A DNA stretch of 64,000 nucleotides from Planctomycetota bacterium (GTDB lineage: Bacteria; Planctomycetota; GCA-002687715; CAIWVZ01): the NCBI GenBank assembly GCA_044222185.1, contig JBGANV010000011.1:1-64000 (forward strand), read 5' to 3'. Each line of letters opens with the position of its first letter. The first letter of the stretch is position 1. Below the pieces are notes generated by a model. It was not told where the DNA came from and did no database searches. It was given only the letters and a program-made list of their open reading frames with translations. This document shows positions 11,119 through 61,475 of this stretch, piece by piece. A program made the translations under genes and the position numbers.

Positions 11119-11125
11119 ATGAAGA

Positions 11126-11154: not shown

Positions 11155-11198
11155 CTCGTTGCGTCCACATGTCGCCGCGACGCGTCGGCCTTCAGGAC

Positions 11199-12349: not shown

Positions 12350-12576
12350 TCTTGTGAACTCGTCAGTCGTCACGGCGTCATCCGGGCTGCGCCCGACGGG
12401 CACGAGTGTGCTGAACGGCGGTCTGGACTGCATCGGCGGCGCGATCGACGATCGATCTCACGCCGCAATTCGGCACTGCGGTCAGGGGACCGAGCGCAAC
12501 GGATGTCGAACCATGGCGCGACGAGATTAGGTGCAACTGGGGGGACGATGCAACACCGCACTTCCACGAATCACGC

Positions 12577-33706: not shown

Positions 33707-33919
33707 GCGGGCATCCTATTGCCGGTCGCGGCGGTCGTGGTCGTCCGGCCGGAAATTGCACGCAGCGCCTCACCGAGCGTGTGCCCCCTACCAACGGAAA
33801 GGGAACCCTCAGCCCAAGAGATGCCACATCGGACCCAGACGTTCCCATCGACTGCAACCCCGCTCGCCTGTACGATCCCGGCTCCGCCCGGCCGGATACC
33901 GGGTGGGAGGGAGCTCCGC

Positions 33920-35983: not shown

Positions 35984-36053
35984 CGGGTCCGAGGTGGATT
36001 CGTATCGGCCGCCCGTGCGGCCCGCGCCGAATCCTCAGTAGAGTGCCCGCTCC

Positions 36054-37982
36054 ATGGCGCTCCTCACCGTCTCGAACGTTCATCTCGCCTACGAGGATCG
36101 TCACCTCCTTCGCGGGGTCGCGCTGTCGATCGACGAGGGCGAACGCGTGGGACTCCTCGGCCAGAACGGCTCGGGAAAGTCGTCGCTGCTGTCGATCCTC
36201 GCTGGGATCAAGCAGCCCGACGAAGGCGAGCGCACGACGCGCCGCAACCTCCGCATCGGGTTTCTCCAGCAGGAGCCGCCGCTCGATCCGTCGCTGAAGA
36301 TCCGTGACGCCGTGCGACTCGGCATCGAGGGTCGTGAGGAAGTGCTGGAGGCGCTCGAGAAACTCCACGCGGCCTTCGAAGATCCCACGCTCTCCCCCGA
36401 TCGGCTCGAATCCCTCCTCGCCAAGCAGGCCCAGCTGGAAGACCGGCTCGAACATCTGGGCGGACACGACATCGAGCATCGGGTCGAGACCATGGTCCAC
36501 CACCTGGGATTGCGCGACGCCGACGCGCCGTGTGCGAACCTCTCCGGCGGCGAGCGGCGCCGCGTGGCTCTCGCCCGGCTGCTCTTGAGCGAGCCGGACC
36601 TCCTCCTCCTCGACGAGCCCACCAACCATCTCGACGCCGTCGTCACGGACTGGCTGGAGGATTGGCTCCTCGACACCCAAGTGCCGCTCTTGATGGTCAC
36701 CCACGATCGTTACTTCCTCGATCGCATCGCCGATCGGATCGTCGAGCTCGACCGCGGCAAGCTCTACTCCTACGACGGCAACTACTCGGACTACCTGGTC
36801 TCGCGCGCCGAACGCGACGACGTCGAGCGCCACATGGATCAGGTCCGCAAGAACACCCTGCGCCGCGAGACGGCGTGGATTCGCCGCGGTCCACCCGCGC
36901 AGCGCAAGAAGTCGAAGGCGCGCCTCGCCCATTATTCGAATCTCGTCGAGTCGAAGCCCGAGGGCCCGAACGCGACGTTGGAATTCGAGATCCCGCCCGG
37001 CCCGCGCCTGGGTACGCGCGTCATCCGACTGAAAGGCGTCAGCAAGTCGTTTGGCGATCGGGTGATCGTCCCCCCGACGGATCTGGAGATAGGCCCCGGC
37101 GAGTGCATCGGCGTCGTGGGTCCCAACGGCGCCGGCAAGAGCACGTTCTTGAAGCTCTGTACGGGTGTGCTCGCGCCGGACACGGGCGAAGTGCTGATCG
37201 CGGATTCGGTCCGCATCGCCGCCATCGATCAACAGCGCAGCGAGCTCGATCCCGAGCGCACCGTGCTCGAGGAAGTGGCCGGCAAGAGCAGCTACGTGCA
37301 GGTCGGCGATCGCCAGGTGCGCGTCGAGACCTTCCTCGAGCAGTTCCTCTTCCCCGGCGATCGCAAGCACCAGCGAATTTCCAAGCTCTCCGGTGGCGAG
37401 CGCAACCGCATCCTTCTCGCCAAGCTCCTGGGCAAGGGCGGCAACGTGCTCGTCCTCGACGAGCCGACGAACGATCTGGACGTGTCCACCCTGCGCGTGC
37501 TCGAAGAGGCCGTCGCCGGTTTCGTCGGCACGACGCTCGTCGTCAGCCACGATCGCTGGTTCCTCGACCGCGTCGCGAAGCGCATCGTGTTCTTCGACGG
37601 CGAGGGCGGCATGCGGATCCACGAAGGATCGCTGACGCTCCTGCTCGAACGCGTCGCCGCGGAGCGCCTCGCGGCGGAGGCCGAGGAGAAGGAACGGGAG
37701 CGGGCCCGGCAGAAGCGGGGCACGGCCAAACCGGCAGCACCGCCGGTCCCCAAGCTCAGTCACAACGAGCGCAAGGAGCTCGATGGACTGCCGGATCGCA
37801 TCACGGCCGCCGAGGGCCGCGTCGCCAGCCTCGACGCCAGGCTCTCCGATCCGGGCTTCTACTCGTCGCCGCGCGCGGATCAGGACCGCGTCATCGCCGA
37901 CCGCAAGGCCGCGGCCGACGCAGTCCAAGCGCTCTACGCGCGATGGGAAGAGCTGGACGCCCTGTCGCGCACGACGGCGTAG
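36054..37982 (+). CDS. uup: ABC-F family ATPase, Uup-like
   Basis: Two ABC domains (GQNGSGKS, LSGGE, LDEPTNHLD; GPNGAGKS, LSGGERNR, LDEPTNDLD), no TM, C-terminal KLS..E.KEL...YARWEEL coiled coil. Confidence 0.88.
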   Translation: MALLTVSNVHLAYEDRHLLRGVALSIDEGERVGLLGQNGSGKSSLLSILAGIKQPDEGERTTRRNLRIGFLQQEPPLDPSLKIRDAVRLGIEGREEVLEALEKLHAAFEDPTLSPDRLESLLAKQAQLEDRLEHLGGHDIEHRVETMVHHLGLRDADAPCANLSGGERRRVALARLLLSEPDLLLLDEPTNHLDAVVTDWLEDWLLDTQVPLLMVTHDRYFLDRIADRIVELDRGKLYSYDGNYSDYLVSRAERDDVERHMDQVRKNTLRRETAWIRRGPPAQRKKSKARLAHYSNLVESKPEGPNATLEFEIPPGPRLGTRVIRLKGVSKSFGDRVIVPPTDLEIGPGECIGVVGPNGAGKSTFLKLCTGVLAPDTGEVLIADSVRIAAIDQQRSELDPERTVLEEVAGKSSYVQVGDRQVRVETFLEQFLFPGDRKHQRISKLSGGERNRILLAKLLGKGGNVLVLDEPTNDLDVSTLRVLEEAVAGFVGTTLVVSHDRWFLDRVAKRIVFFDGEGGMRIHEGSLTLLLERVAAERLAAEAEEKERERARQKRGTAKPAAPPVPKLSHNERKELDGLPDRITAAEGRVASLDARLSDPGFYSSPRADQDRVIADRKAAADAVQALYARWEELDALSRTTA

Positions 37983-38001
37983 TCGCACGCGACGCGCGAC
38001 G

Positions 38002-40467
38002 TCACCGCGGCTCGCTCGGACGCGACGTCGCCGCCTGACGCGTCGCGATCATGCGCCCGCCGATGCGCTCGAGCGCGTCCGAGGCCGCGGCACTCACCGA
38101 CGGGTCCTGGTCCTGGACCAGCTCGAGCAACGAGCCGACGGCCGTTGCATCTCCGAGCGCGCCGAAGGCGAACGCCGCGGCGCGACGCTCGATGGGCTTC
38201 TCGCTCTTCAGCAGCTTCTGGGCCGCATCGAGCGCGGCGCCACGCGCGTCGCCGCCGTCCGCGCCGAATTCGTCCTTCAAGCGGCGCCGCTCGCGGAGCT
38301 TCGTCAGCGCATCTTGAGCCGTCGCCTGGATGCCCGGGTCCTGATCATCGAGCAACGCCACGAGGCGAGGGGCCGCGGCGAAGACACACCGTTCTCCAGC
38401 GAACCGCGCGATGGCTGACAACATCCGGCGATCGGCCGCTTCGAGCGCCACGACGGTGGCGGCGGCCGCATCGGCAGGGCTCACCTCGTAGAACCGCTCC
38501 AGGAAGCGCGCATCGATGAGCCGCTTCGGCACGCGCGCAACGAACGCGCGCATCACGCTGCCATCCAGCTTCTGGTCTGCGCCGGCCCGTCCCCCAACCA
38601 TCGCCCACGGCACCGACGCGGCGCCCGCGCTCTCGGCCATGCGCACGAGATCCTCCACGGCTCCATCTCCGATACGAGTGACCATCGCGGCCGCGATGAC
38701 CGCGAAGGGCGGATCTCCCTTCTTCGCTCGCGACTTCGCGACGAACGCTCGGACGTCCGGCAACACCGTCGCACCGGCGATCTCGACCATGAGCGCCAGG
38801 TCGTGCGCACGGTCGCCGTCGTCTTGCGGTTTACGCGCGCGCAGCGCCGGAATGAGCGCCGGGTCCCGAACGTGGTCCGCGAACTCGTGCGCCCGACTCG
38901 CCAGCTCCAGATCCAACGACGCCAGGTCCTCCAAGAGAAACCGCGGAAGCGGCTGAGGTGTCGTCAATCCTGCCCCCCGATTGGCGGCGCCGTACGCCGC
39001 CATGCGAACCTTCGGATCGGACTCCTCGAGAAGCCGCACGCGGATCGCATCGCTCGCGCGGTCCTGGCCGAGCACCGCATGGGCCAGGGCGGCGCGGCAC
39101 TGCCCTGGAGCCAGACTGGGGAGAAGCTCGAGCACCCACCGCTCGAACTCTTCGGGTTTGAGATTCCGCGCGACGATCTGCGTCATGGACTGCACCATCG
39201 AACCGATCCCCCCGCGGACCCGTTCCTCGGTGGACGGCGCGATTGCGCTCGCTGTGGCCTTCAGCCATCCGGCCATCTGCTCCGGCGAGAGCGTGCGAGT
39301 CGCCCGGGTGTTCCACGCGACGCGATATTCCGTTTCGCCGCGCAGCCAGGTATCCACGCCGTCCTTCAACGACCGAAGCCCGCCCTGATGAACGAGGTCC
39401 GCCACGTCCTGCGGCCAGGATCGCGGGTATTGCCCGAACACACCGGCGGCCTCCATGCGCACCGACCGGTCATCGTTGTCGAGGAGGACGGCCGCGTGGC
39501 GAAGCGCTGAGTCCTCGATCGTCGGCGTGACGTCCGGCCCTCCCATCGCGGCGCGCGCCGCGTGGAGCGCCAGCGTGCGCTCGGCGATCTCCGCGGAGTT
39601 CAACGCGGCGAGGATCGAGGTCTCGACCGTCGACGTGGGGATGCGAAAGCTCCGATCGCCAATCCATGCGAGCGCGCGCTGCCGAACGGATCCGGTGCGA
39701 TGCGTCAGAGCCATCGCTGCGAGCTCCGCGACCCGGGACTCGAGGGACTTCCGCTGCGTCGTCCTGCTCTCCGCGAGCACATCGCACGCCATGCCGTTGA
39801 TCCGCGGATCGACGTGCCGCAATCCTGCCTCGATGATGGCGAATCGCGCGTCCGTTTCCGTCGTCAGCCGCCGTGCGGAGATCAGCGCAGCCTCGGCGAC
39901 GCCCAGGCGCGGGTCGGAGGCCATCGCGACCAATTCCGCCAGCGAAGCCGGCGTCTGCTGTTCGGCGTAGACGGAGGCGATCTTGCGTGCCAGCTCGGCC
40001 GTCGCGTGCTCGATCAACGGTTTCAGGTGCGGCAGGGCGCGGTCCTGGAGCGCCACGAGCTCGAGCTTGGCGGATGGCTCGGGCATGCGGTTGAGTAGTG
40101 CAGTGATCAGCATCGCGGTCGCGTCTGCCGGCCGTGACTCGAGCTCGGCCATCGTCGATCGCACGCTCGGGTCGTCGGGAAATCTATTCCCGAGGTCCTT
40201 CACGGCGTCGCGCGCCTCCGCCTCGCGGCCCAGTGCCATCAAGCAGTGGATGCGGCCCACGCCCGCCTTCGCCGCGATGTCCCCCTTCTGCTCCTTCTCC
40301 GCCTCCGCCGCCGCTTCGGCGTACAGTTTCTCCGCCTTGGCGAAGTCGCGCGTGCTCTTCTCTTCGAAGAAGCCGCGCACGTATGCGTCCTCCGCTTTCG
40401 ACTGCGCGAGGAGCGGAGCCGTCAGAACGAGCACGAGGGCCAATGACGTCGAGATGGTGCGATGCAT
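38002..40467 (-). CDS. Secreted alpha-solenoid (TPR-like N-terminus, HEAT repeats) protein
   Basis: Signal MHRTISTSLALVLVLTAPLLA/Q; HEAT-like LVALLDDQDPGIQATAQDAL, LLELVQDQDPSVSAAASDAL. Confidence 0.75.
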   Translation of the reverse strand: MHRTISTSLALVLVLTAPLLAQSKAEDAYVRGFFEEKSTRDFAKAEKLYAEAAAEAEKEQKGDIAAKAGVGRIHCLMALGREAEARDAVKDLGNRFPDDPSVRSTMAELESRPADATAMLITALLNRMPEPSAKLELVALQDRALPHLKPLIEHATAELARKIASVYAEQQTPASLAELVAMASDPRLGVAEAALISARRLTTETDARFAIIEAGLRHVDPRINGMACDVLAESRTTQRKSLESRVAELAAMALTHRTGSVRQRALAWIGDRSFRIPTSTVETSILAALNSAEIAERTLALHAARAAMGGPDVTPTIEDSALRHAAVLLDNDDRSVRMEAAGVFGQYPRSWPQDVADLVHQGGLRSLKDGVDTWLRGETEYRVAWNTRATRTLSPEQMAGWLKATASAIAPSTEERVRGGIGSMVQSMTQIVARNLKPEEFERWVLELLPSLAPGQCRAALAHAVLGQDRASDAIRVRLLEESDPKVRMAAYGAANRGAGLTTPQPLPRFLLEDLASLDLELASRAHEFADHVRDPALIPALRARKPQDDGDRAHDLALMVEIAGATVLPDVRAFVAKSRAKKGDPPFAVIAAAMVTRIGDGAVEDLVRMAESAGAASVPWAMVGGRAGADQKLDGSVMRAFVARVPKRLIDARFLERFYEVSPADAAAATVVALEAADRRMLSAIARFAGERCVFAAAPRLVALLDDQDPGIQATAQDALTKLRERRRLKDEFGADGGDARGAALDAAQKLLKSEKPIERRAAAFAFGALGDATAVGSLLELVQDQDPSVSAAASDALERIGGRMIATRQAATSRPSEPR

Positions 40468-40530: not shown

Positions 40531-41226
40531 TCACGAACCTCTGGCGTCGAGGTCCAGCCGGTAGCCGTGGCCGTGCACGGTGACGAGGAAGCGGGGTGCG
40601 GCCGGATCGGCCTCGATCTTTCGGCGCAACCGCGCGATGTGGTTGTCGAGCGTGCGGGTCTCCGCGGCGCGGGATACGCCCCACAAATCGCGGAGGATCT
40701 GCGCCCGGTCGACGGCATGGCCGGGCCTGGCGGCGAGATAACGCAGAAGATCCGTTTCGATCCCCGTCAGCTCCTCCGTGCGGTCGCCGTGATTCGCCGT
40801 TCGGGCACCAAGGTCGACGTGCACCCGACCCAACGTGAGGACGTCCCGCGGCACGGCCGTGCCGGTGCGCCGAAGCACGGCCTGGATGCGGGCGACCAGT
40901 TCGGCGATGCCAAACGGCTTCGTGACGTAATCGTCGGCGCCGAGCTGGAGCCCCATGACCTTGTCGGTCTCGGAGCCGCGAGCGGTCAGGCAGATGACGG
41001 CCGTGGTGGCACCGCGCGCCCGAAGCGTCGTCAACACCTCCGTGCCGTCCACGTCTGGAAGCGACAGGTCGAGGATCACGAGATCGAACGCGGATGCGGA
41101 TGCCCCATCCATCGCCGCGCGCCCCTGATCGACCCACGTGACGGTGAAGCCCTCACGTTCCAGGTTGAACTGGAGGCCGCGCGCCAGATTGGCGTCATCC
41201 TCCACGAGCAGGATGCGGGCCTTCAC
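40531..41226 (-). CDS. OmpR/PhoB-family response regulator
   Basis: ILLVEDD, ILDLSLPDVDG, GADDYVTKPF, RTLDNHIARLRRKIE, TVHGHGYR. Confidence 0.95.
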   Translation of the reverse strand: MKARILLVEDDANLARGLQFNLEREGFTVTWVDQGRAAMDGASASAFDLVILDLSLPDVDGTEVLTTLRARGATTAVICLTARGSETDKVMGLQLGADDYVTKPFGIAELVARIQAVLRRTGTAVPRDVLTLGRVHVDLGARTANHGDRTEELTGIETDLLRYLAARPGHAVDRAQILRDLWGVSRAAETRTLDNHIARLRRKIEADPAAPRFLVTVHGHGYRLDLDARGS

Positions 41227-43034
41227 GTCGCGCCTCCTCGATCCTCGGGCCCGAGCGGCAACGTGACGACGACCTGCGCTCCGCCGCCGGGACGAGCCTC
41301 GGCACGGACCTCGCCGCCATGCGCCACGACCACCTCGCGAACGAGTGCGAGCCCGAGCCCCGCGCCGCGCGTGCGCACGCCGGGTCCGCGAACGAAGCGC
41401 TGGAAGATGGCGTCGCCGAGTGCCGCAGGGAGTCCGGGGCCGCGGTCGCCGACGGTCACCGTGACGAGTGGAGCCTCCGCCACCACGCTCACGTCGAGCG
41501 TGCGGCCCGTCGCCGCGTGGTTGATGACGTTCTCCACCAGATTCATGAAGACGCCGCGCAGGGCATCGGGATTCCCGCGGACGGTGGCGGCGTGCGTCAT
41601 CGCGTTCGCGTTCACGGCGATGCCGTGCTCCATGAGCAGGGGCCGGCTGCTCGCGAGCACGTCGTCGAGGAGCGTGCGGACGTCGATGGGTTGTCGCCGC
41701 GCGGCGACCTCGCCCGAATCCAATCGGCCGAGGTCGAGGACGGAGTCGACGAGTCCGGAGAGCCTCACTGCTTCCTGTTCGATGGTCGTCGCGAACTCGG
41801 TGGTTTCGGCGGCCGTACGCGTGCGACCGCGGGCGATGGTCTCCGCGTACATGCGGATCACCGTCAACGGGGTGCGCAGATCGTGCCCCACCTTGGAGAC
41901 GAATGCGGACCGCGCCCGCGCCGCCGCGTCCGTCGCGCGCGCCGCACTCCAGGTCAAGACGACGGCCGCGCCGCCGCCGAGCAGCAGCAGCACGAGCGCG
42001 CCGAACACCACGAGGACGTTGCGGCGCCCCTCGGAGACGACGGCGGAGCGATCCGCGTCCGCCACGATGCGCACGCCCGGGAGGCGGGCCGAGATCGCTC
42101 GCGACTCGCGGATCCAGGCGTCCGTCGCGGCGTCGAGCAGGCTGGTTTCATCCGCGATGCGTGTCCCGCTCGGCAGATCCCCGATTTCGCCTTCCAGGAG
42201 GCCCACGTCGCCGGTCTCCAATCGACGCCACGCGCGCAGGCGATCGCCATCGATCTCCGCGCCGGCGTCCGGAGCAAAGCCTCGGGCCACGCGCGGTGCG
42301 AGGCGTGCGATGGTTGCGACCTCCGCGCGCCGGTTCGCGAGCGTCGGCGGATCGTCGCCGAGGCGTCGCAAGAGTTCCGTGGCGATGCCGTCGTCGGGTC
42401 CGCCCACGCAGGCAAGGATGTCGGATCGCAGGTCCGCGTCGGGTCGTCCGAGTTCCAGTCGTCCCTGGAGGCCCTCGAACGTGCGCCGCTCGGCTCCGCC
42501 CAGTTCAGCGACGAATTCGGCGAGGCGCGAGCCTGCGGGCGCGCGGCCCGCACGGCGGTCGATCGCGAGGAGGTGCCAGCGCGCCAGCGCACGACAGCGC
42601 GGATCCCGCTCCGAAGCCGCAGCGGCGCGATAGAGGATCTGGGCCCGCTCGATGCCGTTCGCCGACGCGTCGCCCGAGGCGGCTTCCGCCGCGGCTCCTT
42701 CACGGAGGTAGAAGTGCCCCTGGGGATCCGCGCTCTCAGACAGCGTCAGGACCGCGAGCGCCTCAGGCTGTTTGGGGCTGAGGAAGGTTCCGTCCGCCGC
42801 GACCACCATTCGCCGACCTCGATCGCCGAGTCCCGCCTCCAACTCCGCCAGACGCGACGCGACGACGGCCGCCCCCTCGCCGATCCTCGCCGCCAGTCGC
42901 GCCCGCGCCTCGTTCTCCGCGAGCACCGGTCCCGCCGCCGCCGTCCGGAGCCCGTGAACCAAGAGCCCGACCGCCGCGAGCCCCAGCAGGGTCGCCGGCA
43001 GCCACGGTCGAAGGGCTCGTTCCGGTCTCGACAT
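41223..43034 (-). CDS. Membrane sensor histidine kinase
   Basis: Two TM segments flanking an extracytoplasmic region; H-box GHDLRTPL, N-box NLVEN, DRGPG, GAGLGLA; 4-nt overlap with response regulator. Confidence 0.92.
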   Translation of the reverse strand: MSRPERALRPWLPATLLGLAAVGLLVHGLRTAAAGPVLAENEARARLAARIGEGAAVVASRLAELEAGLGDRGRRMVVAADGTFLSPKQPEALAVLTLSESADPQGHFYLREGAAAEAASGDASANGIERAQILYRAAAASERDPRCRALARWHLLAIDRRAGRAPAGSRLAEFVAELGGAERRTFEGLQGRLELGRPDADLRSDILACVGGPDDGIATELLRRLGDDPPTLANRRAEVATIARLAPRVARGFAPDAGAEIDGDRLRAWRRLETGDVGLLEGEIGDLPSGTRIADETSLLDAATDAWIRESRAISARLPGVRIVADADRSAVVSEGRRNVLVVFGALVLLLLGGGAAVVLTWSAARATDAAARARSAFVSKVGHDLRTPLTVIRMYAETIARGRTRTAAETTEFATTIEQEAVRLSGLVDSVLDLGRLDSGEVAARRQPIDVRTLLDDVLASSRPLLMEHGIAVNANAMTHAATVRGNPDALRGVFMNLVENVINHAATGRTLDVSVVAEAPLVTVTVGDRGPGLPAALGDAIFQRFVRGPGVRTRGAGLGLALVREVVVAHGGEVRAEARPGGGAQVVVTLPLGPEDRGGAT

Positions 43035-43248
43035 CGGCGCCGATTGTAGGTCGCCGCGCGTCACTCAGTTCTCCCGAACTTGTAACGGGGGTGGCGGAGC
43101 CGGAAGGGGCACGACAACAGCCCCAGTTCCCGCCGGCACGTGCCAGGCTCATAGGCGCCCGGCGCGGAACGCACTCCTATTGCGCCGGGATCGCCGCCGC
43201 GCGAGTAGAATCCCCGCCTGCTCATGATCGATGCCGCCGAGGGAGTCC

Positions 43249-46200
43249 ATGGCCGAGAGTGATTCGAACAAGCCGGTCATCGCCCGGCCGCGAAGTCTGT
43301 TCATCGCGTATGACACGACCGTCGACTATTTGAAGGACTGTCTGGGCGTCCTCGTCGACTCGGGCGAGCGGATCCGCGACATGCAACCGGTCGTGCTCGC
43401 CCGCACACCGGGTCAGGGCAGCATTCCGGAGAGAGTGCTCACGGGGATCCGTGAAGCGGATGCGTTCCTCGGAGTTCTCGACCGACCGAATGCGAACGTC
43501 GGCTTCGAACTCGGATACGCGTTGGGCAACGACAAGCCGTCGTGGTTGATGCGATTCGAGGACCGCGCGCACGGATGGCTCAAGGCGCCGCCGCTCGCTG
43601 AACTCGGCGTGCCCTCGTTCACCAACACGGAGGAGCTGCGCAATCAGGTCGGCCAGACGGAGGCGCTACGGCCGCCCGGCGCACCTGCGACCGGCGGATC
43701 GGAGGTCCTGTTCCTTTGCCCCACGAGCGGGCGCGGAGCGACTCTGCGCGAGAAGGTCAAAACCAGTGCGAAGGGTTGGACGGCATTCGATCACGCAGCC
43801 TGGAGCCTGACCGACCTTCCGAAACGTCTCGATCGCGTCGGCACTGTGGTCTGGGCGTACGTTCCGCCGGACCCAAACAAGGAATCAGCTGAACGCGACG
43901 GCATCGAGAACGCGATCCTCGCGATCCTCGCCGGCTACGCGCGCGGCAGCGGTCGCAGCCTCAAGTTCTGGCACTACGGCGACCTCACGAAGACCCGGAC
44001 GCTGGTCGACGTCTCCGACTCGTGGCGCGAGATCAAGAACTTCGATGCGATCCCGGCTGCGATCCTGGATGTGGAGCACGACCGCGCGGCGAACGAATAC
44101 CGCGCTGCCGTCGAGGACTATCGAACGCGTGCAGCCGATGCATTCCGCACGTTCCGACCGCTGGGGTTCGAGGGGCGCTTCCGGATCGACGTGCGACTCG
44201 ACGAGTTGTTCTTCGAAATGGCGTGCCGTCATCGGATATCCCGTGCGAGCGGTCGCGATGGGCTCGGTGAAATGGAACGCCACGGCGGCATTCCGCTCAC
44301 GAAGTCGTTCGACCCGATCGGAACTGACGACGCGCCGGACGGAGTCCTACTCCTCGGTGAACCCGGAGCGGGCAAGACGACGCAACTGCGCCGGCTCCTC
44401 CGCTGGGTTGCGCCAGCCAGGTCTGCGGACGCGCGGGGCGCACTCGACGGCGCCGTCCCGTTCCTCGTCAGCCTGCGCGACATCAACCCGGCCCAGCCGG
44501 AGGCAGAACTGACGCCGGAGGCCATCGCAAAGCGAGCGATCCGCGCGGCCGGAGCGCAAGCCGCGGCAGGGCGCGTGCGCGACATCCTCGAACGCGAGAA
44601 GCCACTCTTTCTCCTCGACGGGCTCGACGAGATCCGCGACTCGAATCAACGGGCAGCCGTCGCCAAGGCGGTCGTCAAGCTCTCCAAGACTGCGCGCGTC
44701 ATCGCGACGTGCCGGTTCGCGGGCTACGACGCGGTCAAGAGCACGTTCGAAAACCGTTTCCTCCTGCTCGAGGTTCCGTCACTGACGAAAGACCAGGCCG
44801 AGGCGTTCGTCCTCCGCTGGTATCAGGCGGTCGAGACGGCAGGAGACATCGACGATCGCGAGAAGCGCCTCGCCGACGCCGCCCAAAAGGCCGCCGAGCT
44901 CAACGCAAGCATCGCCGCCGAGAACATCATCACGTCGAAGCGCCTCCAAGACCTGTCCGGCAATCCGCTGCTTCTCACAGCCGTCTGCCTCGTGCATCGG
45001 GACCTGCAGCGCCTGCCCATTGGCCGCGGCGAGCTCTACGAGCTTTGCGTCAAGGCGCTCATCGAGCTTTGGACGCGTAACAAGGAAGTGAAGCTCGACC
45101 TCGACGCGGCGAAGGCGCAGCTTGCGTTGCAGCGCATGGCGTTGTGGCTTCACCAGGAGACGGATCGGCAGTCGGCCACAGTCGATCAGCTCCGGGCGGA
45201 GATCGAGCCGACGCTGCGCCGCCACGGTTGGCGGACTGGGCTCGCCAACTTCCTCGCACACATCCGCGACGAGACGGGTCTCTTGACGGATGCTGTCGGT
45301 GGCGGGTTCAAGTTTCTGCATCTCTGCTTCCAGGAGTACCTCGCGGCATGTGAGATCCAGCGACGCGCCATCGACGAGCCGGAACGCATCGACAGCCTCG
45401 CGTCGCACTTCGGCGAGAGCTGGTGGCAGGAGGTCGCCGGCATCCTCGTGGCGCTGAAGGGGTCCGACTGTTTCCATCGCTATTTCCGCTCGGTCGTCCG
45501 GAACCCGAGCTTCGGCGACACGGCGCACACGGAGGTGGCTCGCTCCTGCGTTCGCGATGCACGCGATCCGACGCCCGAGCCCTTCGTGGACTGCCTGCTC
45601 GGTGAGGAACCGACGAACGACGGCGCCATGCGGTGCCACATCGCCGCCGCCACGATCGTCGTGGATCGATTCCCCGACGAAGTGCCCGTGATTCGCGAGC
45701 GCTTCGTGGAGACACCGCACAAGAGCGACTACGTGCTGGAGCTCTTCGGCGTCGCGGCTCGGACACCGCTCGTAACGGTCTCGGCGCCCGAGGTTTTCAT
45801 CACCCCCAACGGTGGCTGCGAACTCGTTCGCATCCCCGCCGGCACTTTCCTCATGGGCTCACCCGAATCGGAGGCAAATCGCCAGGGAAACGAAGGCCCG
45901 CAACACCGAGTCACGTTGACACGAGACTTCTACATAGGACGCTTCCCCGTCACGAACGCGCAATACGCCCTGTTTCTCCGGTCGCATGAGAAGCCGGACG
46001 TGGTGGAGGAACCGAGCCATTGGCGAAGTCAGCGGTTCAACGAACCTGATCAGCCCGTCGTTGGCGTCAGCTGGGACGACGCGACCGCGTTCTGCGTCTG
46101 GGCGGGAACGAACACGCTCGCACCGCTCGAAGGTCGGCTGCCGACGGAGGCGCAGTGGGAGTACGCGTGTCGGGCTGGGACAGAGACGCCATACTGGTCC

Positions 46201-46584
46201 GGAAACGACGTCGGCGCGCTAGACCAGGTCGGGTGGTTCGACAAGAACACGCTCGGCAGGACCAAGCCCGTGGGTCTAAAGCCCGCGAACCGGTTCGGTC
46301 TCCATGACACGCATGGGAGCGTGTGGGAGTGGTGTGCCGACCCATTCGGGCCATACGGTGAAGAAGAAGTAGTTGACCCATCGTGCGGCGACAGCGTCGC
46401 GGCGGCCCACTACGCCCAAGTCGAGGCGCTGTGGGTCGACGGGGCCGCGCGCGTGCTCCGCGGCGGATCGTGGGGGGTTGGTGCTGCGAGGTGCCGTTCC
46501 GCCGCCCGGTTTTGGAGCCGCCCCGACTTCAGGTTCGACGTGTTCGGCTTCCGCCTGGCTCTGTCCGTCATTCAACCTCGGTAA
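43249..46584 (+). CDS. NLR-like protein A: NDT/TIR-like domain + degenerate copy + NACHT NTPase + FGE-sulfatase (CLec-fold) domain
   Basis: ATG 43249 after GAGGGAG; NANVGFELGYA; Walker A GEPGAGKTT; Walker B LLDGLDE; TCR; NPLLL; FLHLCFQEYLAA; FLMGS, RLPTEAQWEYACRAG, RVLRGGSW, GFR. Confidence 0.9.
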   Translation: MAESDSNKPVIARPRSLFIAYDTTVDYLKDCLGVLVDSGERIRDMQPVVLARTPGQGSIPERVLTGIREADAFLGVLDRPNANVGFELGYALGNDKPSWLMRFEDRAHGWLKAPPLAELGVPSFTNTEELRNQVGQTEALRPPGAPATGGSEVLFLCPTSGRGATLREKVKTSAKGWTAFDHAAWSLTDLPKRLDRVGTVVWAYVPPDPNKESAERDGIENAILAILAGYARGSGRSLKFWHYGDLTKTRTLVDVSDSWREIKNFDAIPAAILDVEHDRAANEYRAAVEDYRTRAADAFRTFRPLGFEGRFRIDVRLDELFFEMACRHRISRASGRDGLGEMERHGGIPLTKSFDPIGTDDAPDGVLLLGEPGAGKTTQLRRLLRWVAPARSADARGALDGAVPFLVSLRDINPAQPEAELTPEAIAKRAIRAAGAQAAAGRVRDILEREKPLFLLDGLDEIRDSNQRAAVAKAVVKLSKTARVIATCRFAGYDAVKSTFENRFLLLEVPSLTKDQAEAFVLRWYQAVETAGDIDDREKRLADAAQKAAELNASIAAENIITSKRLQDLSGNPLLLTAVCLVHRDLQRLPIGRGELYELCVKALIELWTRNKEVKLDLDAAKAQLALQRMALWLHQETDRQSATVDQLRAEIEPTLRRHGWRTGLANFLAHIRDETGLLTDAVGGGFKFLHLCFQEYLAACEIQRRAIDEPERIDSLASHFGESWWQEVAGILVALKGSDCFHRYFRSVVRNPSFGDTAHTEVARSCVRDARDPTPEPFVDCLLGEEPTNDGAMRCHIAAATIVVDRFPDEVPVIRERFVETPHKSDYVLELFGVAARTPLVTVSAPEVFITPNGGCELVRIPAGTFLMGSPESEANRQGNEGPQHRVTLTRDFYIGRFPVTNAQYALFLRSHEKPDVVEEPSHWRSQRFNEPDQPVVGVSWDDATAFCVWAGTNTLAPLEGRLPTEAQWEYACRAGTETPYWSGNDVGALDQVGWFDKNTLGRTKPVGLKPANRFGLHDTHGSVWEWCADPFGPYGEEEVVDPSCGDSVAAAHYAQVEALWVDGAARVLRGGSWGVGAARCRSAARFWSRPDFRFDVFGFRLALSVIQPR

Positions 46585-46938
46585 AGCCTCGACGTTCGAT
46601 CGTCGGGTTGCGTCGAGCTCGAGCGACAGCGTCGGTAGGAAGTGGACTCCGTCGTGCCCGACCGAGGGACGCCCGTGCCACCGGCATCTCACCGAATGAT
46701 GCGCTGCTGCCCCCTGGGCGCCCGGAACGGCGGCTCGTAGCCCCGTTGCGGCCCGTCGCGGATCACCGGGGGTCAGGTAGCGGGTCGGCTTCCCGGAGAA
46801 TGCGTCAGGCTGGCGATGTCGCCGGAGCGACCGCCATGTCACGTCAGCGGCAAAGCACCTCGGGTAGCCGGCGGAATCCGCGGGTCGGAGGTGCCACCGC
46901 CGGATTCAACCACACACCAAAGATCGAACATCGAACAT

Positions 46939-49900
46939 CTATCGAGCTCGGGGGAGGGACAGGACGAAGCGGAAGCCGATGAAGACGAGCCGGCCGTCCG
47001 GGAGGCTCCCGAACCGCGCGGCGGAGCGGCACCTCGCGGCGCCGCTCCCCCACGAGCCGCCGCGCAGCACGCGGGCGGCGGACCGGTCGTTGCCTTTCGG
47101 GTCTTGTTGTGGGTCGGCTGAATAGGCGCTGAACCCGTCGGCACACCACTCCCACACGTTGCCGTGCATGTCGTACAGGCCGAAGCCGTTCGGCCGTTTC
47201 TCACGAACCTCAGGCGGGCGCCCGCCTGAGGTTCCGGAGAACCACCCCACCGCGCTGAGAGCCGCGGGGTCGTCGCCAGACCAATACGCCGAAGACGTCC
47301 CGGCTCGACACGCGTACTCCCACTGTGCTTCGGTCGGCAATGCGCCGATGAAACCCGTTGGTGCCGCCCTTCCGGCCCAATCGCAGAACGCCTTGGCATC
47401 GTGCCAGGACACGCCGACGACGGGTTGCAGGGAGCTGTTGAATCGCTTGTCGCGCCAATATGCGGGCTCACTCACCGACGTGGGCTTGTCGGTGGACTTC
47501 AGAAACTCGGCGTACTGCTCATTCGTGACGGGAGACCGTCCAATGTAAAACTCGCGCGTCAGTGTCACGGAATGCTGGGGGCCCTCGGAGTCCCTGCGGC
47601 CAGGCTCCCCCTCGCGCGACCCCATCATGAACGTGCCGCAAGGGATCAGCGCCAACTCCAAGCGGGCTCTTCCGAGCACGAGAGTCAGGGGTTCTGCCGG
47701 AGTGGTTCGGACCGCTGGCGTCTCCGCCACTAACAAGCGCTGGCTCTTCGCGGCTCCGCGTGCGACCCGCTTGGTGAGCGTCTTCTGTATAGGGAGCTCA
47801 AGCGCCTCCTGAATCGCGCGATACGGGTGAGGCTTCTTCGCGAACCGCTCTTTCAACCCGCGAAGTTCTTCGGGCCATCTCCATTTGAGGAGTTCGAGAG
47901 CGGCCAGTTGTCGAGGCCATTCGCTCCGACGCGTCGATGGCCGCGCCTGGAGAGTCTTGAGGAAAGGATCCGGCGACGGCTTCGTTGCGTCCTGAACGGC
48001 ATCCTTCAGGAACGTCAGGTTCGCCGCGTCACCAAACGCCGGCAATTTCGCTGCGGCCTCGAAGTACGACCGAAATGGCGTCGATTGTTTCTGGGCCAGG
48101 AGAAGCGCCGTCACTTCCTGCCACCAGCTCTCGTGGAGCCGTGCGGCCAGGTTCGGAATGGCCTTCCGGTCATCGAACGCTTGCTGATGCAGCTCGCACG
48201 CCGCGAGGAACTCCTGAAAGCACAGGTGGAGGAACTTGAACCCACCCCCGATGGCGTCGGTGACGAGCCCCGTCTCGTCGCGGATGTGTTCGAGGAACGG
48301 TGCTACGCCCTTGTCCCATCGCAGGCGCCGCAGAGGCTGATCGAGAACCGGCTCGAGATCCTCGGTCGTCGCCGACTGCCGCCCCTGCTCCTGGTGAAGC
48401 CAGAGCGCCAGTTGCTGGAGAATCGACTGAGCATCGGCCGTCGACATGTCGAGGCCGGACTTCTTGTCGCGCGTCCACTGCTCGAGAAGGATCCGAACGC
48501 AGAGCTCGTAGAGCTCGGCGCGACCATTCGGCAGGCGCTTGACGTCGCGGTGCACGAGACACACGGCCGTGAGCAGGAGCGGATTGCCCGTGAGGTCACG
48601 AAGCCCCTTCGCGCGGTTACCAGCGGCGATCTCGGCGTTCAGGCGCGCGGCGGTGTCGCGAGCGCCGGTCACGGCCTTCGCACGGTCAGGCACCTCCCCC
48701 GCCGTCTCCACGGCCTCGTACCAGCGCACGACGAACGCGTCGGCCTGTTCGGCGTTGAGAGCCGGGACTTCGAGCACGAGGAATCCGTCTTCGAAGCTCG
48801 ACTTCACGGCTTCGTAGCCGGCGTAGCGGCACGTCGCCGCCACTCGATGCTTCTCAGCCAGCGCGACGACGGCCTTCGCGGCGGAGACGCGCTGCTTGGG
48901 ATCGCGGATTTCGTCGAGACCATCGAGCAGCAGGAGGAGGTTCTCCGACCGCACGATCTCGTCCACATCCTTCGAGGACGGCTGAATGCCCACAGCCTTG
49001 ATGGCGCGTGTGACGAGCGCCTTCGCGGTCAGCTGATCGCCTGCGTGCTTCGGATCGATGTCTCTCAGGCTGACGAAGATCGGAAGCAGCCCGTCGAGGG
49101 CGCTGCCACTTTCGGTCCTCTGCCTCGAAGCCACCCAGCGAAGCAGGCGACGAAGTTGCGTCGTCTTGCCCGCGCCGGGCTCGCCGAGCAGGATGACCCC
49201 GCGGCACGCCGCCAGCTTCCCGATCCGGTCGAAGGCCTTCGCCAGGGGAATACCGCGGCCGTCGAGATCGCGATCGCCGACGGCGCGATGCCGGCAGTTC
49301 ATATCGAAGAACAGCTCGTCGAACCCGATCTCGACACGGAAGCGCCCCTCGAATCCGAGCGGGCGGAACGTTCGAAACGCCTCCGCCGCCCGCTTGCGGT
49401 AATCCTCGACGGCGGCGGTGTACTCGTCCTTGCCCCGCATCGCCTCGACGGTGGCGACCTCCTTTTTCACGGCCTTGAAGTCGGGAAGCAGGCGGCGGAT
49501 TCCGGACAGATCGGCGAGCAGACGATCCTCGCCCAGCACGCCGTAGTGCCAGAACTTCAATCCAAGCCCCCGGCCATGGGCGTAACCGGCGAGGACGGCG
49601 AGCGCAGCATTCTCGTCGCCGTCGCGGACGTCCGCCGGGGTCGGCGGGACGTAGGCCCACACGACCGTGCCCACGCCGTCGAGCAGCCGCGGCATGTCTG
49701 ACAGCGACCATTCGTCCTCATCGAACGGAACCCACCGGGGGGCATCCCCGCGAAGGCGCTCGCGGAGGTCTTGACCGGCGCCGGTCGTCGGACAGAGCAG
49801 CAGGAGCTTCGGTCCGCGCGGCGGCGGCGACGCGAGCTTTGGAAGCGGGTCCTGCGCCTCGACGATCTCCCGCAACTCACTCGCACTCGTGAACGGCGGA

Positions 49901-50262
49901 ATGAGTTGCGTCCTCAACGGGACCTTCTCGAGAAACGGTTCACGCCCTTTCGCGAAGGAGGCGAGCCAGGTGGGCTTGTCGAAGGCGAGCGCATAGCCGA
50001 GTTCGAACCCGACGTTGGCATTGGGCCGATCGAGGACGGCGACGAACCCGTCAGCCTCGCGGATCGGTCCGAGCACGTGCTCATCCGGTATGTTCCCTTG
50101 GGCGCCCGCCAAGCCCGGGACGATCGCGCGCATGTCCCGCACGCGCTTCTCAGGATCGGCCACATTGCTGAGGAGGTCTTTGATGCGCCTGACCGACATG
50201 TCGTAGGCGATGAACAGCCGCGGACCGGTCACGACGGCCGGCGCGGGGTCAGGTGCGGGCAT
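46939..50262 (-). CDS. NLR-like protein B, paralog of 43249..46584, same architecture
   Basis: ATG 50262 after GGAG; NANVGFELGYA; GEPGAGKTT; LLDGLDE; NPLLL; FLHLCFQEFLAA; GLYDMHGNVWEW, RVLRGGSW, GFR. Confidence 0.9.
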   Translation of the reverse strand: MPAPDPAPAVVTGPRLFIAYDMSVRRIKDLLSNVADPEKRVRDMRAIVPGLAGAQGNIPDEHVLGPIREADGFVAVLDRPNANVGFELGYALAFDKPTWLASFAKGREPFLEKVPLRTQLIPPFTSASELREIVEAQDPLPKLASPPPRGPKLLLLCPTTGAGQDLRERLRGDAPRWVPFDEDEWSLSDMPRLLDGVGTVVWAYVPPTPADVRDGDENAALAVLAGYAHGRGLGLKFWHYGVLGEDRLLADLSGIRRLLPDFKAVKKEVATVEAMRGKDEYTAAVEDYRKRAAEAFRTFRPLGFEGRFRVEIGFDELFFDMNCRHRAVGDRDLDGRGIPLAKAFDRIGKLAACRGVILLGEPGAGKTTQLRRLLRWVASRQRTESGSALDGLLPIFVSLRDIDPKHAGDQLTAKALVTRAIKAVGIQPSSKDVDEIVRSENLLLLLDGLDEIRDPKQRVSAAKAVVALAEKHRVAATCRYAGYEAVKSSFEDGFLVLEVPALNAEQADAFVVRWYEAVETAGEVPDRAKAVTGARDTAARLNAEIAAGNRAKGLRDLTGNPLLLTAVCLVHRDVKRLPNGRAELYELCVRILLEQWTRDKKSGLDMSTADAQSILQQLALWLHQEQGRQSATTEDLEPVLDQPLRRLRWDKGVAPFLEHIRDETGLVTDAIGGGFKFLHLCFQEFLAACELHQQAFDDRKAIPNLAARLHESWWQEVTALLLAQKQSTPFRSYFEAAAKLPAFGDAANLTFLKDAVQDATKPSPDPFLKTLQARPSTRRSEWPRQLAALELLKWRWPEELRGLKERFAKKPHPYRAIQEALELPIQKTLTKRVARGAAKSQRLLVAETPAVRTTPAEPLTLVLGRARLELALIPCGTFMMGSREGEPGRRDSEGPQHSVTLTREFYIGRSPVTNEQYAEFLKSTDKPTSVSEPAYWRDKRFNSSLQPVVGVSWHDAKAFCDWAGRAAPTGFIGALPTEAQWEYACRAGTSSAYWSGDDPAALSAVGWFSGTSGGRPPEVREKRPNGFGLYDMHGNVWEWCADGFSAYSADPQQDPKGNDRSAARVLRGGSWGSGAARCRSAARFGSLPDGRLVFIGFRFVLSLPRAR

Positions 50263-50565: not shown

Positions 50566-51513
50566 ATGCGGCCGAAGCCCACTCGTTTCCTGTTGCCACT
50601 TGCCGCGCTTTCCGTGCTGATCGCGGCCAGCGTCGTCCCACGCAGCGCGAATGAAAATCAACCGAATGCACCCACCGCCCGACCCGCGAAAGATGGCGTG
50701 ACCATCGCGCTGGCCGACTGGCCGGCGTCACAGGCCGCTCGCCGCGGCCGGGTGGTTTACGAGGAGAACTGCATCGGGTGCCACGGTCAGGAAGGCAAGG
50801 GCGACGGCCCCGCATCCCTCAACCTGAATCCCGTGCCGCGCAACTTCCAGAAGGCCAAGTTCAAGTTCCGCTCGTCCGAGTCGGGACAGCTGCCCTTCGA
50901 AGAGGACCTGCTGCGAACCGTCGAATGCGGCCTGCCGGGCTCGTCGATGCCGGGCTTCCCGCTGCTGCCTCAGCAACAGCGCAAGGATGTGGTCGCCTAC
51001 GTCCTCGACGTGGCCGTCTTCGGACGAGCCAAGGTCCTGGCGGAGGCACAGGCTCAGGATGAAGGCCTCACCCGCGAGCAACTCGTGGCGAAGATGCCCG
51101 AGCTCGCTGAGAAGACCCGCGCGAGTCAGCTCGGCGGGCGCAAGAAGGTGATCGTTCCGCCGGCCGTGCCGGCGACGCCCGAGCTCATCGAGCGCGGTCG
51201 CCAGCTGTATGCGAAGCAGTGCGCATCCTGCCACGGAGACACGGGTCGCGGCGACGGCACGTCAGCCTTCGCACTCCGCGACTGGTCGGACGCGGAGATC
51301 CGCCCGCGTGACTTCACGACCGGCGTGTTCCGCGCGGGCAGCACCGCACAGGACCTGTTCCTGCGCATGCGCACCGGGCTCAACGGAACACCCATGCCCG
51401 CGTCCAACGAGAACGACGAGACCGTGTGGTCCATCGTTCATTACATCCTCAGCCTCAAGACCCCAGGCACCATCCCGAACACGCGACGGATGGGCTGCGA
51501 CCGCGGGAACTGA
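50566..51513 (+). CDS. Exported diheme cytochrome c, first gene of the cbb3 operon
   Basis: N-terminal hydrophobic segment; CIGCH and CASCH; distal Met motifs GSSMP and GTPMP. Confidence 0.9.
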   Translation: MRPKPTRFLLPLAALSVLIAASVVPRSANENQPNAPTARPAKDGVTIALADWPASQAARRGRVVYEENCIGCHGQEGKGDGPASLNLNPVPRNFQKAKFKFRSSESGQLPFEEDLLRTVECGLPGSSMPGFPLLPQQQRKDVVAYVLDVAVFGRAKVLAEAQAQDEGLTREQLVAKMPELAEKTRASQLGGRKKVIVPPAVPATPELIERGRQLYAKQCASCHGDTGRGDGTSAFALRDWSDAEIRPRDFTTGVFRAGSTAQDLFLRMRTGLNGTPMPASNENDETVWSIVHYILSLKTPGTIPNTRRMGCDRGN

Positions 51514-61392: not shown

Positions 61393-61475
61393 GGCCGGAG
61401 TTTCGATCGCACGAAAAGCGCGCGCCGCATCGCCGGCCGCGCACGGATGCGTTGCTTCGAAGGAAGGACCGAATC

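Follow-up and report, generated by a model that had tools for sequence, protein, structure and literature searches.

Two convergent NLR-like NACHT proteins with TIR/NDT-like heads and FGE-type lectin-fold domains lack the DGR cassette that typically accompanies their relatives

Bacterial NACHT proteins with FGS sensors of the "antigen receptor type" were described by Kibby et al. (bioRxiv 10.1101/2022.07.19.500537), who present DrHyd and TIR as NAD+-targeting N-terminal effectors and report several cases in which DGR reverse transcriptases (RTs) diversify the FGS sensors. DGRs with two STAND-CLec targets each are described for "clade 5D" loci by Dore et al. (PMC10907252), exemplified by DGR 3 of Thiohalocapsa PB-PSB1, and STANDs with FGE-sulfatase sensors are placed among the defence-associated STAND sensor types by PMC13581612 (Nature 2026), in the available text of which this type figures only in structural models and the listing of sensor types. 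On the effector side, the TIR-DrHyd-SLOG clade is presented as NADases (PMC9503650), and retron Ec86 has an NDT-like effector that requires dimerisation and depletes adenine derivatives, showing that an NDT-like domain can serve as a dimerisation-dependent anti-phage effector (bioRxiv 10.1101/2023.08.16.553469). No functional test of any FGS-type bNACHT appears in the available text of Kibby et al., Dore et al. or PMC13581612.

Within the window, i.e., the whole stretch of 64,000 nucleotides of planctomycete DNA that was analysed, genes A and B encode proteins with the tripartite order of the FGS-type bNACHTs, an effector, a NACHT and a C-terminal FGS/FGE domain (Table 1), and with the combination of STAND NTPase and formylglycine-generating-enzyme-like sensor of PMC13581612. 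The original observation of two full-length convergent paralogs 354 bp apart held, both ORFs being intact and BLASTP aligning the products over their full length with 591/1136 identities (52%), and the tree places A and B as sister sequences with 100/100 support. The product of gene A has 1117 aa, or 1111 aa if started at Met7 (43249), the start in database record P0005, from which E87, K376 and the domains of A are numbered. The four motif blocks proposed as conserved (FRTFRPLGFEGRFR, GEPGAGKTTQLRRLLRWVA, IRDETGL, and GGGFKFLHLCFQE) are all common to A and B, and the highest Kyte-Doolittle mean over a 19-residue window is 1.21 in each, so that neither contains a TM-like segment. As first noted, the pair lies between a two-component system and the cbb3 oxidase operon, with a HEAT/TPR protein also among the neighbours. 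On the other hand, the architecture and pairing, initially taken as unnamed, belong to a class already in print as bNACHT-FGS with DrHyd/TIR and as DGRs with two STAND-CLec targets (Kibby et al., Dore et al., PMC13581612), although no tandem DrHyd-like plus TIR-like head was found in the text of Kibby et al., whose Figure 2 and Table S1 may list one. What is new here is the N-terminal module (N-module) as a recurrent, unnamed family, the DGR link of the relatives, and a pair devoid of a DGR.

Table 1. Coordinates in the window of genes A and B, their domains and their flanks
Feature	Position	Strand	Description and evidence
OmpR-type response regulator	40531-41226	-	Upstream flank
Histidine kinase	41223-43064	-	Upstream flank
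Gene A	43231..46584 or from 43249	+	NLR-like receptor; ORF and translation, Pfam, full-length AF2 model
A N-module domain 1, DNPH1/NDT (DrHyd)-like alpha/beta	43285..43689	+	aa 13-147; PNANVGFELG, E87
A N-module domain 2, TIR/NDT-like alpha/beta	43696..44097	+	aa 150-283; RDGxEN motif
A NACHT NTPase core	44344..44826	+	Pfam NACHT 46.6 bits, motifs, Foldseek
A helical/winged-helix region, NACHT to sensor	44857..45744	+	aa 537-832; secondary structure of full-length model
A FGE-sulfatase/C-type-lectin-fold sensor	45820..46560	+	Pfam FGE-sulfatase 191.6 bits, PDB and fold matches
A stretch homologous to DGR variable repeat (VR)	46450..46569	+	RVLRGGSWGVGAARCRSAARFWSRPDFRFDVFGFR...; alignment to Engelhardtia TR and VRs
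Spacer separating A and B stop codons	46585..46938	.	354 bp
Gene B	46939..50262	-	NLR-like receptor paralogous to A, 1107 aa; ORF and translation, Pfam, BLASTP
B VR-homologous stretch	46954..47073	-	RVLRGGSWGSGAARCRSAARFGSLPDGRLVFIGFR...; alignment to Engelhardtia TR and VRs
B FGE/CLec sensor	46963..47652	-	aa 871-1100; Pfam FGE-sulfatase 186.6 bits
B NACHT core	48715..49197	-	aa 356-516; Pfam NACHT 44.4 bits, motifs
B N-terminal two-domain TIR/NDT-like module	49438..50223	-	aa 14-275; profile match E 3e-104
Dihaem cytochrome c	50566-51513		Downstream flank, with CcoN/CcoO also downstream

The N-module, modelled by AF2 with a pLDDT of 93.1, comprises two TIR/NDT-like alpha/beta domains, the first resembling DNPH1/NDT; the N-terminal extension, compared with clade 5D, is resolved in A and B as a TIR/DrHyd-type double domain. 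The sequence likeness of domain 1 to DNPH1/Rcl and the nucleoside 2-deoxyribosyltransferases (NDTs) is marginal, Pfam Nuc_deoxyrib_tr scoring 23.7 bits in A (E 1.2e-5) and 21.5 bits in B, both below the gathering cut-off of 28.8, and the profile comparison with the PDB reaching Rcl/DNPH1 at E 8.8e-4 with the catalytic Glu aligned. By fold, domain 1 matches 7o62_C (Foldseek probability 1.00, TMt 0.67; VIA-align Z 8.0 for 7o62) and MilB (Z 8.6), and domain 2 matches the RPS4 TIR (Z 10.1), the NDT 6evs (Z 9.4), and the MAL TIR (Z 9.4). Domain 1 has in common with DNPH1/Rcl, NDTs, and the Ec86 effector both the fold and the ...VG(F/Y)ELG... Glu motif; in A, this is E87 within PNANVGFELG, invariant together with N81 and N83 in 37/37 aligned module sequences, and B carries PNANVGFELG and RDGDEN. 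In contrast to DNPH1/Rcl and NDTs, domain 1 of A and B forms a tandem with a TIR-like domain, and the two are fused to a NACHT switch. Domain 2, which is followed in A by a long helix (aa 265-298), is probably non-catalytic. Three points count against the receptor reading proposed below: the Nuc_deoxyrib_tr score falls short of gathering, Z-scores of 8 to 10 are common among flavodoxin-like folds, and E220, the conserved acid in domain 2, occurs in only 24/37 aligned sequences.

The Walker motifs, announced as intact, are indeed GEPGAGKT in both proteins (lysine K376 in A) and LFLLDGLDE/LLLLDGLDE, and both NACHT cores score above the Pfam cut-off of 26.7 bits. Foldseek aligned the NACHT part of A with NLRC4 (4kxf_B, E 2.7e-13 across 581 columns) and also matched NOD2 and NLRP3, the NLRC4/NOD2 alignment covering the helical/winged-helix region; the full-length AF2 model of A reached a pLDDT of 85.8 and a pTM of 0.66. 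The sensors exceed the FGE-sulfatase cut-off of 23.3 bits, with PDB matches by sequence of the A sensor to PvdO (1.3e-24), FGEs (~1e-20), and Treponema denticola TvpA (2y3c, 9e-15). TvpA, a DGR variable protein of the FGE-type CLec fold, matches the A sensor by fold as well (E 1.3e-13, TMt 0.69). TvpA is a lipoprotein and not a cytoplasmic NACHT fusion. Where FGE has its first catalytic Cys, the sensor aligns a non-Cys residue, and the domain is not a catalytic FGE. The order NDT/TIR-like, NACHT, FGE/CLec was borne out by Pfam, the two AlphaFold2 models, and the fold searches.

An exhaustive profile search found the N-module in 538 cluster representatives at a threshold of E<=1e-3 and in 160 at E<=1e-30, mostly N-terminal in proteins of 1000 to 1800 aa. 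An FGE domain was present in 49 of the 152 N-module proteins examined, and the 37 scanned members comprised 18 with TPRs and 11 with FGE, the fusions including NACHT-FGE, STAND-TPR, and kinase-FGE. The distribution is patchy (2/40 relatives' genomes, 0/4 in the same family), and the module behaves like a mobile effector head.

We propose, at a probability of roughly 60%, that A and B are paralogous cytoplasmic NLR-like NACHT-class STAND receptors of fixed specificity, with an N-glycosidase effector and an immune role. The ligand sensing, oligomerisation, effector chemistry, and immune function that we infer would proceed as follows: (i) a foreign or danger-associated ligand would bind the lectin pocket of the non-catalytic FGE/CLec sensor and release autoinhibition, (ii) the NACHT NTPase would act as a switch, its NTP-dependent oligomerisation gathering the N-modules, and (iii) the gathered DrHyd-like domain, which keeps the invariant Glu, of the nucleophile type found in DNPH1/NDT enzymes, could become an active N-glycosidase cleaving NAD+ or (deoxy)nucleotides, with the cell being arrested or killed. 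Such an NLR-like mechanism is a reasonable proposal, in agreement with published predictions.

Alternatively, though in our view rather unlikely, A and B could be non-immune signal-transduction STAND switches, whose lectin fold would sense a small molecule or glycan from within the cell or from its surroundings and whose N-module would bind or process a nucleotide as regulatory output, as part of the large FGE-domain signalling repertoire of the organism and not for cell suicide. The genome contains 46 FGE-domain matches, many within frames of 800 to 1250 aa, and an Engelhardtia relative joins the N-module to a Ser/Thr kinase and FGE, which fits general signalling as well as immune use; cyanobacterial DGR targets were also once speculated to act in signal transduction (PMC10907252). 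Moreover, the neighbours of A and B are housekeeping and regulatory genes and not a recognisable defence island, which counts against the immune reading. The same holds for the PADLOC check suggested at the outset, in which no model matched A, B, or their direct neighbours, the sole match nearby being that of a Ser/Thr kinase ~10 kb upstream to kinase-type models. Nevertheless, an N-module both patchy and shuffled across sensors, like the effector heads of conflict systems, together with an invariant catalytic-type Glu, argues for the immune receptor, and the DGR hypermutation of the relatives is easier to reconcile with ligands that change than with one fixed metabolite.

Plant NLRs include genetically paired sensors and helpers. 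An obligate hetero-oligomeric pair of this kind, sensor plus helper, appears improbable for A and B. Pairs, convergent or tandem, do recur across the loci of the relatives (L023/L039, L026, L028, L030/L034, L032, L035, L037, L043, and L011) as at the A/B locus, and both genes are intact; however, A and B are sisters, and as each has every domain of the other and no broken motif, neither resembles a degenerate helper. In addition, partners elsewhere may bear other heads, e.g., DUF4062 or kinase, and the pairing in relatives is explained by two VRs served by one TR.

Two receptors of fixed specificity are what the DGR comparison points to. In Engelhardtia mirabilis (L030), an HTH-TR-RT cassette is flanked by relatives of A and B, in which the C-terminal stretch homologous to that of A and B is the VR; the TR has 22 A, and the mismatches are adenine-specific, falling at TR adenines in 18/18 (VR1), 14/14 (VR3), and 12/16 (VR2) cases. 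A survey of 30 stretches showed an RT adjoining such genes at 8 distinct places, and the genome of A and B has a second pair, on C6, flanking an RT and an HTH_17 gene. Both L030 and C6 match the clade 5D layout around the RT, and members of the A/B lineage are typically the two targets of one DGR sited between them. The suggestion that such sensors are DGR targets applies to the relatives and not to A and B, whose contig has no RT and for which the genome has no TR, so that the "variable pocket" is fixed here. No RT, TR, HTH gene, or Rfam match was found in the spacer, in contrast to clade 5D and to the DGR-diversified FGS-type bNACHTs; with the HTH-TR-RT cassette absent, the two sensors are fixed, germline-like specificities, unlike TvpA and other DGR variable proteins, as no diversification is ongoing.

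The divergence of A and B is ordinary, including at their 3' ends when set against clade 5D, and the conserved 3' flank is reduced to remnants, GTTCGATC lying immediately 3' of each stop (46594-46601, +; 46922-46929, -). Diversification by a DGR in trans, with the TR unassembled or the C6 RT supplying it, is very improbable: such flanks resemble those of DGR-linked relatives, C6 bears a DGR-type RT and assembly completeness is 93.8%, but the C6 cassette has no detectable TR, the 7.08-Mb assembly has no second copy of the A or B 3' end except the paralog (76% nucleotide identity), 12/26 A/B differences in the VR-homologous stretch are at third codon positions, and a contig of an independent study, although contigs may hide rare variants, is identical across 46380-46617, covering that stretch of A. 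At the residue level, 8 of the 11 A/B differences in the VR-homologous stretch hit those 15/40 codons whose first or second base is an A in the Engelhardtia TR.

Genes A and B lie tail to tail in the window, their stop codons 354 bp apart, and we have little doubt that they encode paralogous NLR-like receptors in which an N-terminal head is followed by a NACHT core and an FGE-type sensor (FGS). The original prediction of two full-length open reading frames was borne out by the ORF coordinates and by an end-to-end BLASTP alignment (591/1136 identities, 52%), and all the conserved motif blocks that it listed were found in both proteins. The Walker motifs that it described as intact were recovered as GEPGAGKT (aa 370 in A, 360 in B) and as LFLLDGLDE (453, A) or LLLLDGLDE (443, B), the patterns required being GxxxxGK[ST] and hhhhDGxDE, respectively. 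The Pfam NACHT model (PF05729) scored 46.6 bits in A and 44.4 bits in B for a gathering score of 26.7, and G373, G375, and D460 were invariant in 35 aligned homologs. In the AlphaFold2 model of full-length A (35 homologs, pLDDT 85.8, pTM 0.66), which consists of three blocks, the central one presents the nucleotide-binding, helical, and winged-helix fold of NLRs, with Foldseek matches to NLRC4 (4kxf_B, E 2.7e-13 over 581 columns), NOD2 (5irm_A, E 5.7e-11), and NLRP3. A sequence search of the NACHT-helical region (aa 301 to 860) against the PDB gave nothing at E<=0.01. The most hydrophobic 19-residue stretch of A and B reaches only 1.21 (Kyte-Doolittle).

The pair is preceded by an OmpR-type response regulator and a histidine kinase and followed by a dihaem cytochrome c, CcoN, CcoO, a P-type ATPase, and a CcoG-like ferredoxin. 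Between positions 42500 and 51000, Rfam gave no match at E<=0.1; a promoter scan returned no site, and the five terminator-like sites found equal the shuffle mean of 4.7.

Coordinates of the receptor genes of the window and of the DGR-associated loci of contig C6 (same genome, stretch L011) and Engelhardtia mirabilis (stretch L030)
Feature	Location	Strand	Remarks
Gene A	window 43231-46584	+	1117 aa; 1111 aa from Met7 at 43249 (start in P0005, the protein record of A)
Gene B	window 46939-50262	-	1107 aa
P0004, DUF4062-NACHT-FGE	L011 (C6:195000-211000) 4257-7415	+	
N-module-STAND-FGE gene	L011 about 9212-12790	-	in-frame TAG inside FGE domain
RVT_1 reverse transcriptase	L011 7539-8546	-	
HTH_17 ORF	L011 within 8598-9317	-	
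Engelhardtia DGR	L030 9758-20774		TR 13968-14096 (-), 22 A in TR

The N-terminal head (N-module, ~290 residues) was modeled from 37 sequences as two tandem alpha/beta domains and then a long helix (pLDDT 93.1, pTM 0.91). Over the first ~110 residues, the Pfam model Nuc_deoxyrib_tr (PF05014) scored 25.8, 23.7, and 21.5 bits, under its cut-off of 28.8. Domain 1 (aa 13 to 147, numbered from Met7 of A) resembles nucleoside deoxyribosyltransferases (NDT) and DNPH1 in Foldseek (7o62_C, prob 1.00, TMt 0.67; 9ia6_A, DNPH1, TMt 0.62) and MilB in structural alignment (Z 8.6). A profile of the module matched Rcl/DNPH1 in the PDB at E 8.8e-4, aligning the Glu of VGFELG with that of VGYELG in Rcl. N81, N83, and E87 are present in all 37 aligned modules, and domain 1 has the DNPH1/NDT fold together with a conserved Glu that opens the helix following the central strand. 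In DNPH1 and NDT enzymes, the Glu equivalent to E87 is the catalytic nucleophile. The nearest ESM Atlas clusters to the module, at a score of 0.94, are named NDT or TIR.

Domain 2 (aa 150 to 283) has its best structural matches in the RPS4 TIR (Z 10.1), MAL (Z 9.4), an NDT (Z 9.4), and AtTIR (Z 9.3), with GTPases and receiver domains scoring nearly as high, and the Pfam TIR models gave no match to A or B at E<=0.1. Its sole candidate acid, E220, is found in 24 of 37 rows and is less well kept than R216 (34/37) and D217 (32/37). Domain 2 is probably a noncatalytic scaffold of the TIR/DrHyd type. Foldseek matches of the whole module to the tandem GTPase EngA, at TM ~0.2 to 0.3 and rmsd 15 to 17 Å, were set aside as generic similarity between pairs of Rossmannoid domains.

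The C-terminal sensor matches Pfam FGE-sulfatase (PF03781) at 191.6 bits in A and 186.6 bits in B (gathering score 23.3) and resembles PvdO, FGE, and the DGR variable protein TvpA both by sequence and by fold. The active-site cysteines of FGE form a copper-binding pair. In the HMMER alignment to Streptomyces coelicolor FGE (6muj), only the second Cys position was matched, the first ('...ylchdsyc...') falling on a Val in 'swgvgaarc', so that both active-site cysteines were not found together. The sensor is hence a lectin-fold binder and catalytically not an FGE. A tblastn-type search of the whole genome with gene A returned 46 matches, nearly all to the FGE domain and many of them in open frames of 800 to 1250 aa, indicating a very large repertoire of FGE-domain proteins in this organism. 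At window positions 47130 to 47200, contigs from all four metagenome runs accumulate and are interrupted in the region of gene B that encodes the conserved FGE motif. Of the two long contigs of the run that is probably the source, one ends at 47179 and the other starts at 47150; these breaks are due to a short repeat common to many FGE genes.

The original prediction knew of no named system with this architecture, yet both the class and its link to diversity-generating retroelements (DGRs) are already in print. Kibby et al. (bioRxiv 10.1101/2022.07.19.500537) define FGS 'antigen receptor-type' C termini on bacterial NACHT proteins, consider several of them likely to be DGR diversified, and include DrHyd and TIR among the N-terminal effectors. 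DGRs that have two STAND-CLec targets are described by Dore et al. (PMC10907252). Kaur et al. (PMC7159879) connect FGS domains, DGRs, and NTPase-based conflict systems, planctomycetes included, and STANDs with FGE-sulfatase sensors are shown in PMC13581612. Receptors of the A/B kind are therefore known, and our finding would hardly surprise specialists. Our analysis adds that the N-terminal extension resolves into a recurrent TIR/DrHyd double head, that named relatives carrying this head demonstrably have DGRs, that the window pair has seemingly lost its DGR cassette, and that another cassette of this genome is half decayed. Neither the tandem head nor fixed pairs lacking a DGR turned up in our literature searches, but supplementary material may describe them.

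A word-indexed search with the N-module returned only 5 proteins. When 1.84 billion cluster representatives were searched exhaustively with a profile, 538 were found at E<=1e-3, including 160 at E<=1e-30, most of them proteins of 1000 to 1800 aa with the module at the N terminus. An FGE domain related to that of A is also present in 49 of the 152 module proteins examined (P0006 to P0157), and a Pfam scan of 37 of the module proteins found TPRs in 18, FGE-sulfatase in 11, and NACHT in 8; one copy in Engelhardtia mirabilis heads a Ser/Thr kinase-FGE protein. The module was confirmed at 33 loci of named genomes, 18 of them in Planctomycetota lineages according to record titles, and among relatives, it was found in just 2 of 40 genomes and in none of the 4 within the same family. 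From a mobile head swapped among sensors and patchily distributed, we infer the pattern of a conflict-system effector domain. In a tree midpoint rooted for drawing only, and thus giving no direction, A and B are sisters (support 100/100) and fall in a clade of 8 with P0054, P0143, and DUF4062-type partners (P0004 and those of L026, L028, and L032), distinct from a 26-row clade that holds most of the N-module-linked genes of other genomes. These separate clades indicate that the head has been shuffled between NACHT lineages and that the window pair is a lineage-specific duplication.

DGR targeting of such genes is unambiguous in Engelhardtia mirabilis Pla133 (NZ_CP036287.1), where the complete layout is a target gene, an HTH_17 gene, a template repeat (TR), a reverse transcriptase (RT), and a convergent target, plus a third target. 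Mismatches between TR and variable repeats (VRs) fall on TR adenines in 18/18, 14/14, and 12/16 cases for the three VRs, which sit in one N-module-Pkinase-FGE gene and two N-module-NACHT-FGE genes; homologs of A and B are thus proven DGR targets. Among 30 stretches surveyed, an RT adjoins such genes at 8 distinct places; convergent pairs without a nearby RT were found at L026, L032, and L037 as well as in the window, and a tandem pair at L035.

The only further N-module gene of the genome, on contig C6, is convergent with the gene for P0004, with an HTH_17 gene and an RT between the two, the pair spanning positions 4257 to 12790 of L011. The last ~184 nt of both genes, including ~40 nt beyond the stop, are 91% identical, and a segment of 72 nt holds 13 of the 16 mismatches. 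Over the 120 nt alignable to the Engelhardtia TR, 9 of 12 differences occupy positions homologous to TR adenines. No TR for this pair was found in the genome assembly, and between the HTH gene and the RT, local alignment scored 26, less than the shuffle maximum of 32. A role as TR was rejected for the 3' end of C6 gene 2, only 8 of the 16 mismatches being at its own adenines. The lack of a detectable TR and the in-frame TAG in one target indicate a DGR system that appears to be decaying in this genome.

The original prediction had also remarked that such sensor domains are common DGR targets, which holds for the relatives, with the adenine mismatches of Engelhardtia, and fails for the window pair, which is not a current DGR target. 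Contig C11, which carries the window, has no RVT_1 match, the only DGR-type RT of the genome being that of C6; no RT, TR, or HTH gene was found in the 354-bp spacer, and a blastn search (word size 7) of the whole assembly for a TR of the 3' ends of A and B returned only the paralog, at 76% identity. The 120-nt VR-homologous stretches of A and B (46450 to 46569, +, and 46954 to 47073, -) differ at 26 positions, 12 of them third codon positions, which is ordinary divergence. Over 46380 to 46617, the window is matched without any difference by a contig of an independent sludge study, weak evidence that A is no current target, as contigs drop rare variants. An invertible, shufflon-type switch between the convergent 3' ends was dropped, since a repeat search at the locus gave only paralogy-level inverted repeats (73 to 82%) and no exact long repeats.

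Two features suggest traces of DGR ancestry in the window pair. The sequence GTTCGATC, considered as a candidate conserved IMH-like cis element 3' of the VR, lies at most 20 nt after both stop codons; with both strands counted, the 64 kb hold just 7 matches to it. The post-stop flank of B is closely like that of L040, where an HTH17 match follows the gene, and is likewise similar to the ATCGATCTTCGATC-type flanks of L017, L023, L026, and L043. Moreover, 15 of the 40 codons have an adenine at position 1 or 2 in the Engelhardtia TR, and these 15 account for 8 of the 11 residue differences between A and B (hypergeometric P = 0.007), a bias that selection on pocket residues would produce equally. 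The pair may be a 'fossilized' hypermutation product, in which two DGR-made specificities would have been fixed after loss of the HTH-TR-RT cassette, and C6 would be caught midway through the same decay with its RT and HTH kept, no TR detected, and a stop in one target. To this reading, we give a probability of about 0.45, slightly short of even odds. If it is true, the window and C6 form a natural series in which adaptive-like receptors decay to innate NLRs of fixed specificity, and the two loci would show which pocket residues were selected. Throughout L016 to L043, the noncoding flanks 3' of the stop codons of N-module/NACHT-FGE genes are nearly identical inside each locus, belong to a few types common to distant genomes (ATCGATCTTCGATCCTTGA-like, CTTGTTCTTGATGTGTCC-like, and CTTCACCACTTCAC-like), and are better conserved than the proteins; they may be DGR homing elements.

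A conflict or immune role of A and B is somewhat favored over other roles, and we are less confident of their exact effector chemistry. If A and B behave like characterized NLRs and Avs proteins and as predicted in print for their class, a ligand would bind the lectin pocket, leading to NTP-dependent oligomerization of the NACHT core and to clustering of the N-modules, whereupon the DrHyd-like domain would be switched on as an N-glycosidase that cleaves NAD+ or (deoxy)nucleotides. The NDT-like effector of retron Ec86 needs dimerization and depletes adenine derivatives (bioRxiv 10.1101/2023.08.16.553469), and Iyer et al. (PMC9503650) group TIR, DrHyd, and SLOG in a single clade that includes NADases. 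Against a defense role stand the position of the locus outside any defense island, the silence of PADLOC, and the 46 genomic matches that make FGE domains very common. The search for a named system suggested by the original prediction yielded, in PADLOC-DB 2.0, only P-loop-level mad8 matches at E 0.009 and 0.058 and nothing meaningful for A, B, or P0004; NCBIfam EruA scored 23.6 and 28.8 bits with A and B for a cut-off of 1000.

No functional test of FGS/CLec-type bacterial NLRs, the predicted 'antigen receptors,' is described in the literature passages covered. A DGR-free pair with two frozen pockets offers a simple experimental start, as no hypermutation would confound the constructs. It could be used to ask for the ligand of such a lectin-fold sensor and to tell whether the TIR/DrHyd double head, which is widespread but unnamed, acts as a NADase or as a nucleotide N-glycosidase. 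Compared with its DGR-linked relatives and the decaying C6 cassette, the pair bears on the question of how hypervariable receptors turn into innate ones that are fixed.

Elsewhere in the window, positions 29502 to 32918 (-) encode a 1138-aa Ser/Thr protein kinase with C-terminal TPRs, whose kinase domain is hit by numerous kinase models of PADLOC (PD-T4-6, mad6, and MkoA; best E 2.7e-69), hits that may reflect the kinase fold only. Two putative ORFs without Pfam or PADLOC match, at 33809 to 35977 (-, 722 aa) and 35967 to 37988 (-, 673 aa), sit upstream of an 821-aa HEAT/TPR protein (38002 to 40467, -), high G+C making spurious long ORFs common. Finally, two adjacent large proteins with FG-GAP/VCBS-type repeats are encoded at 58723 to 61392 (+) and 61452 to 63998 (+), the latter continuing past the window.
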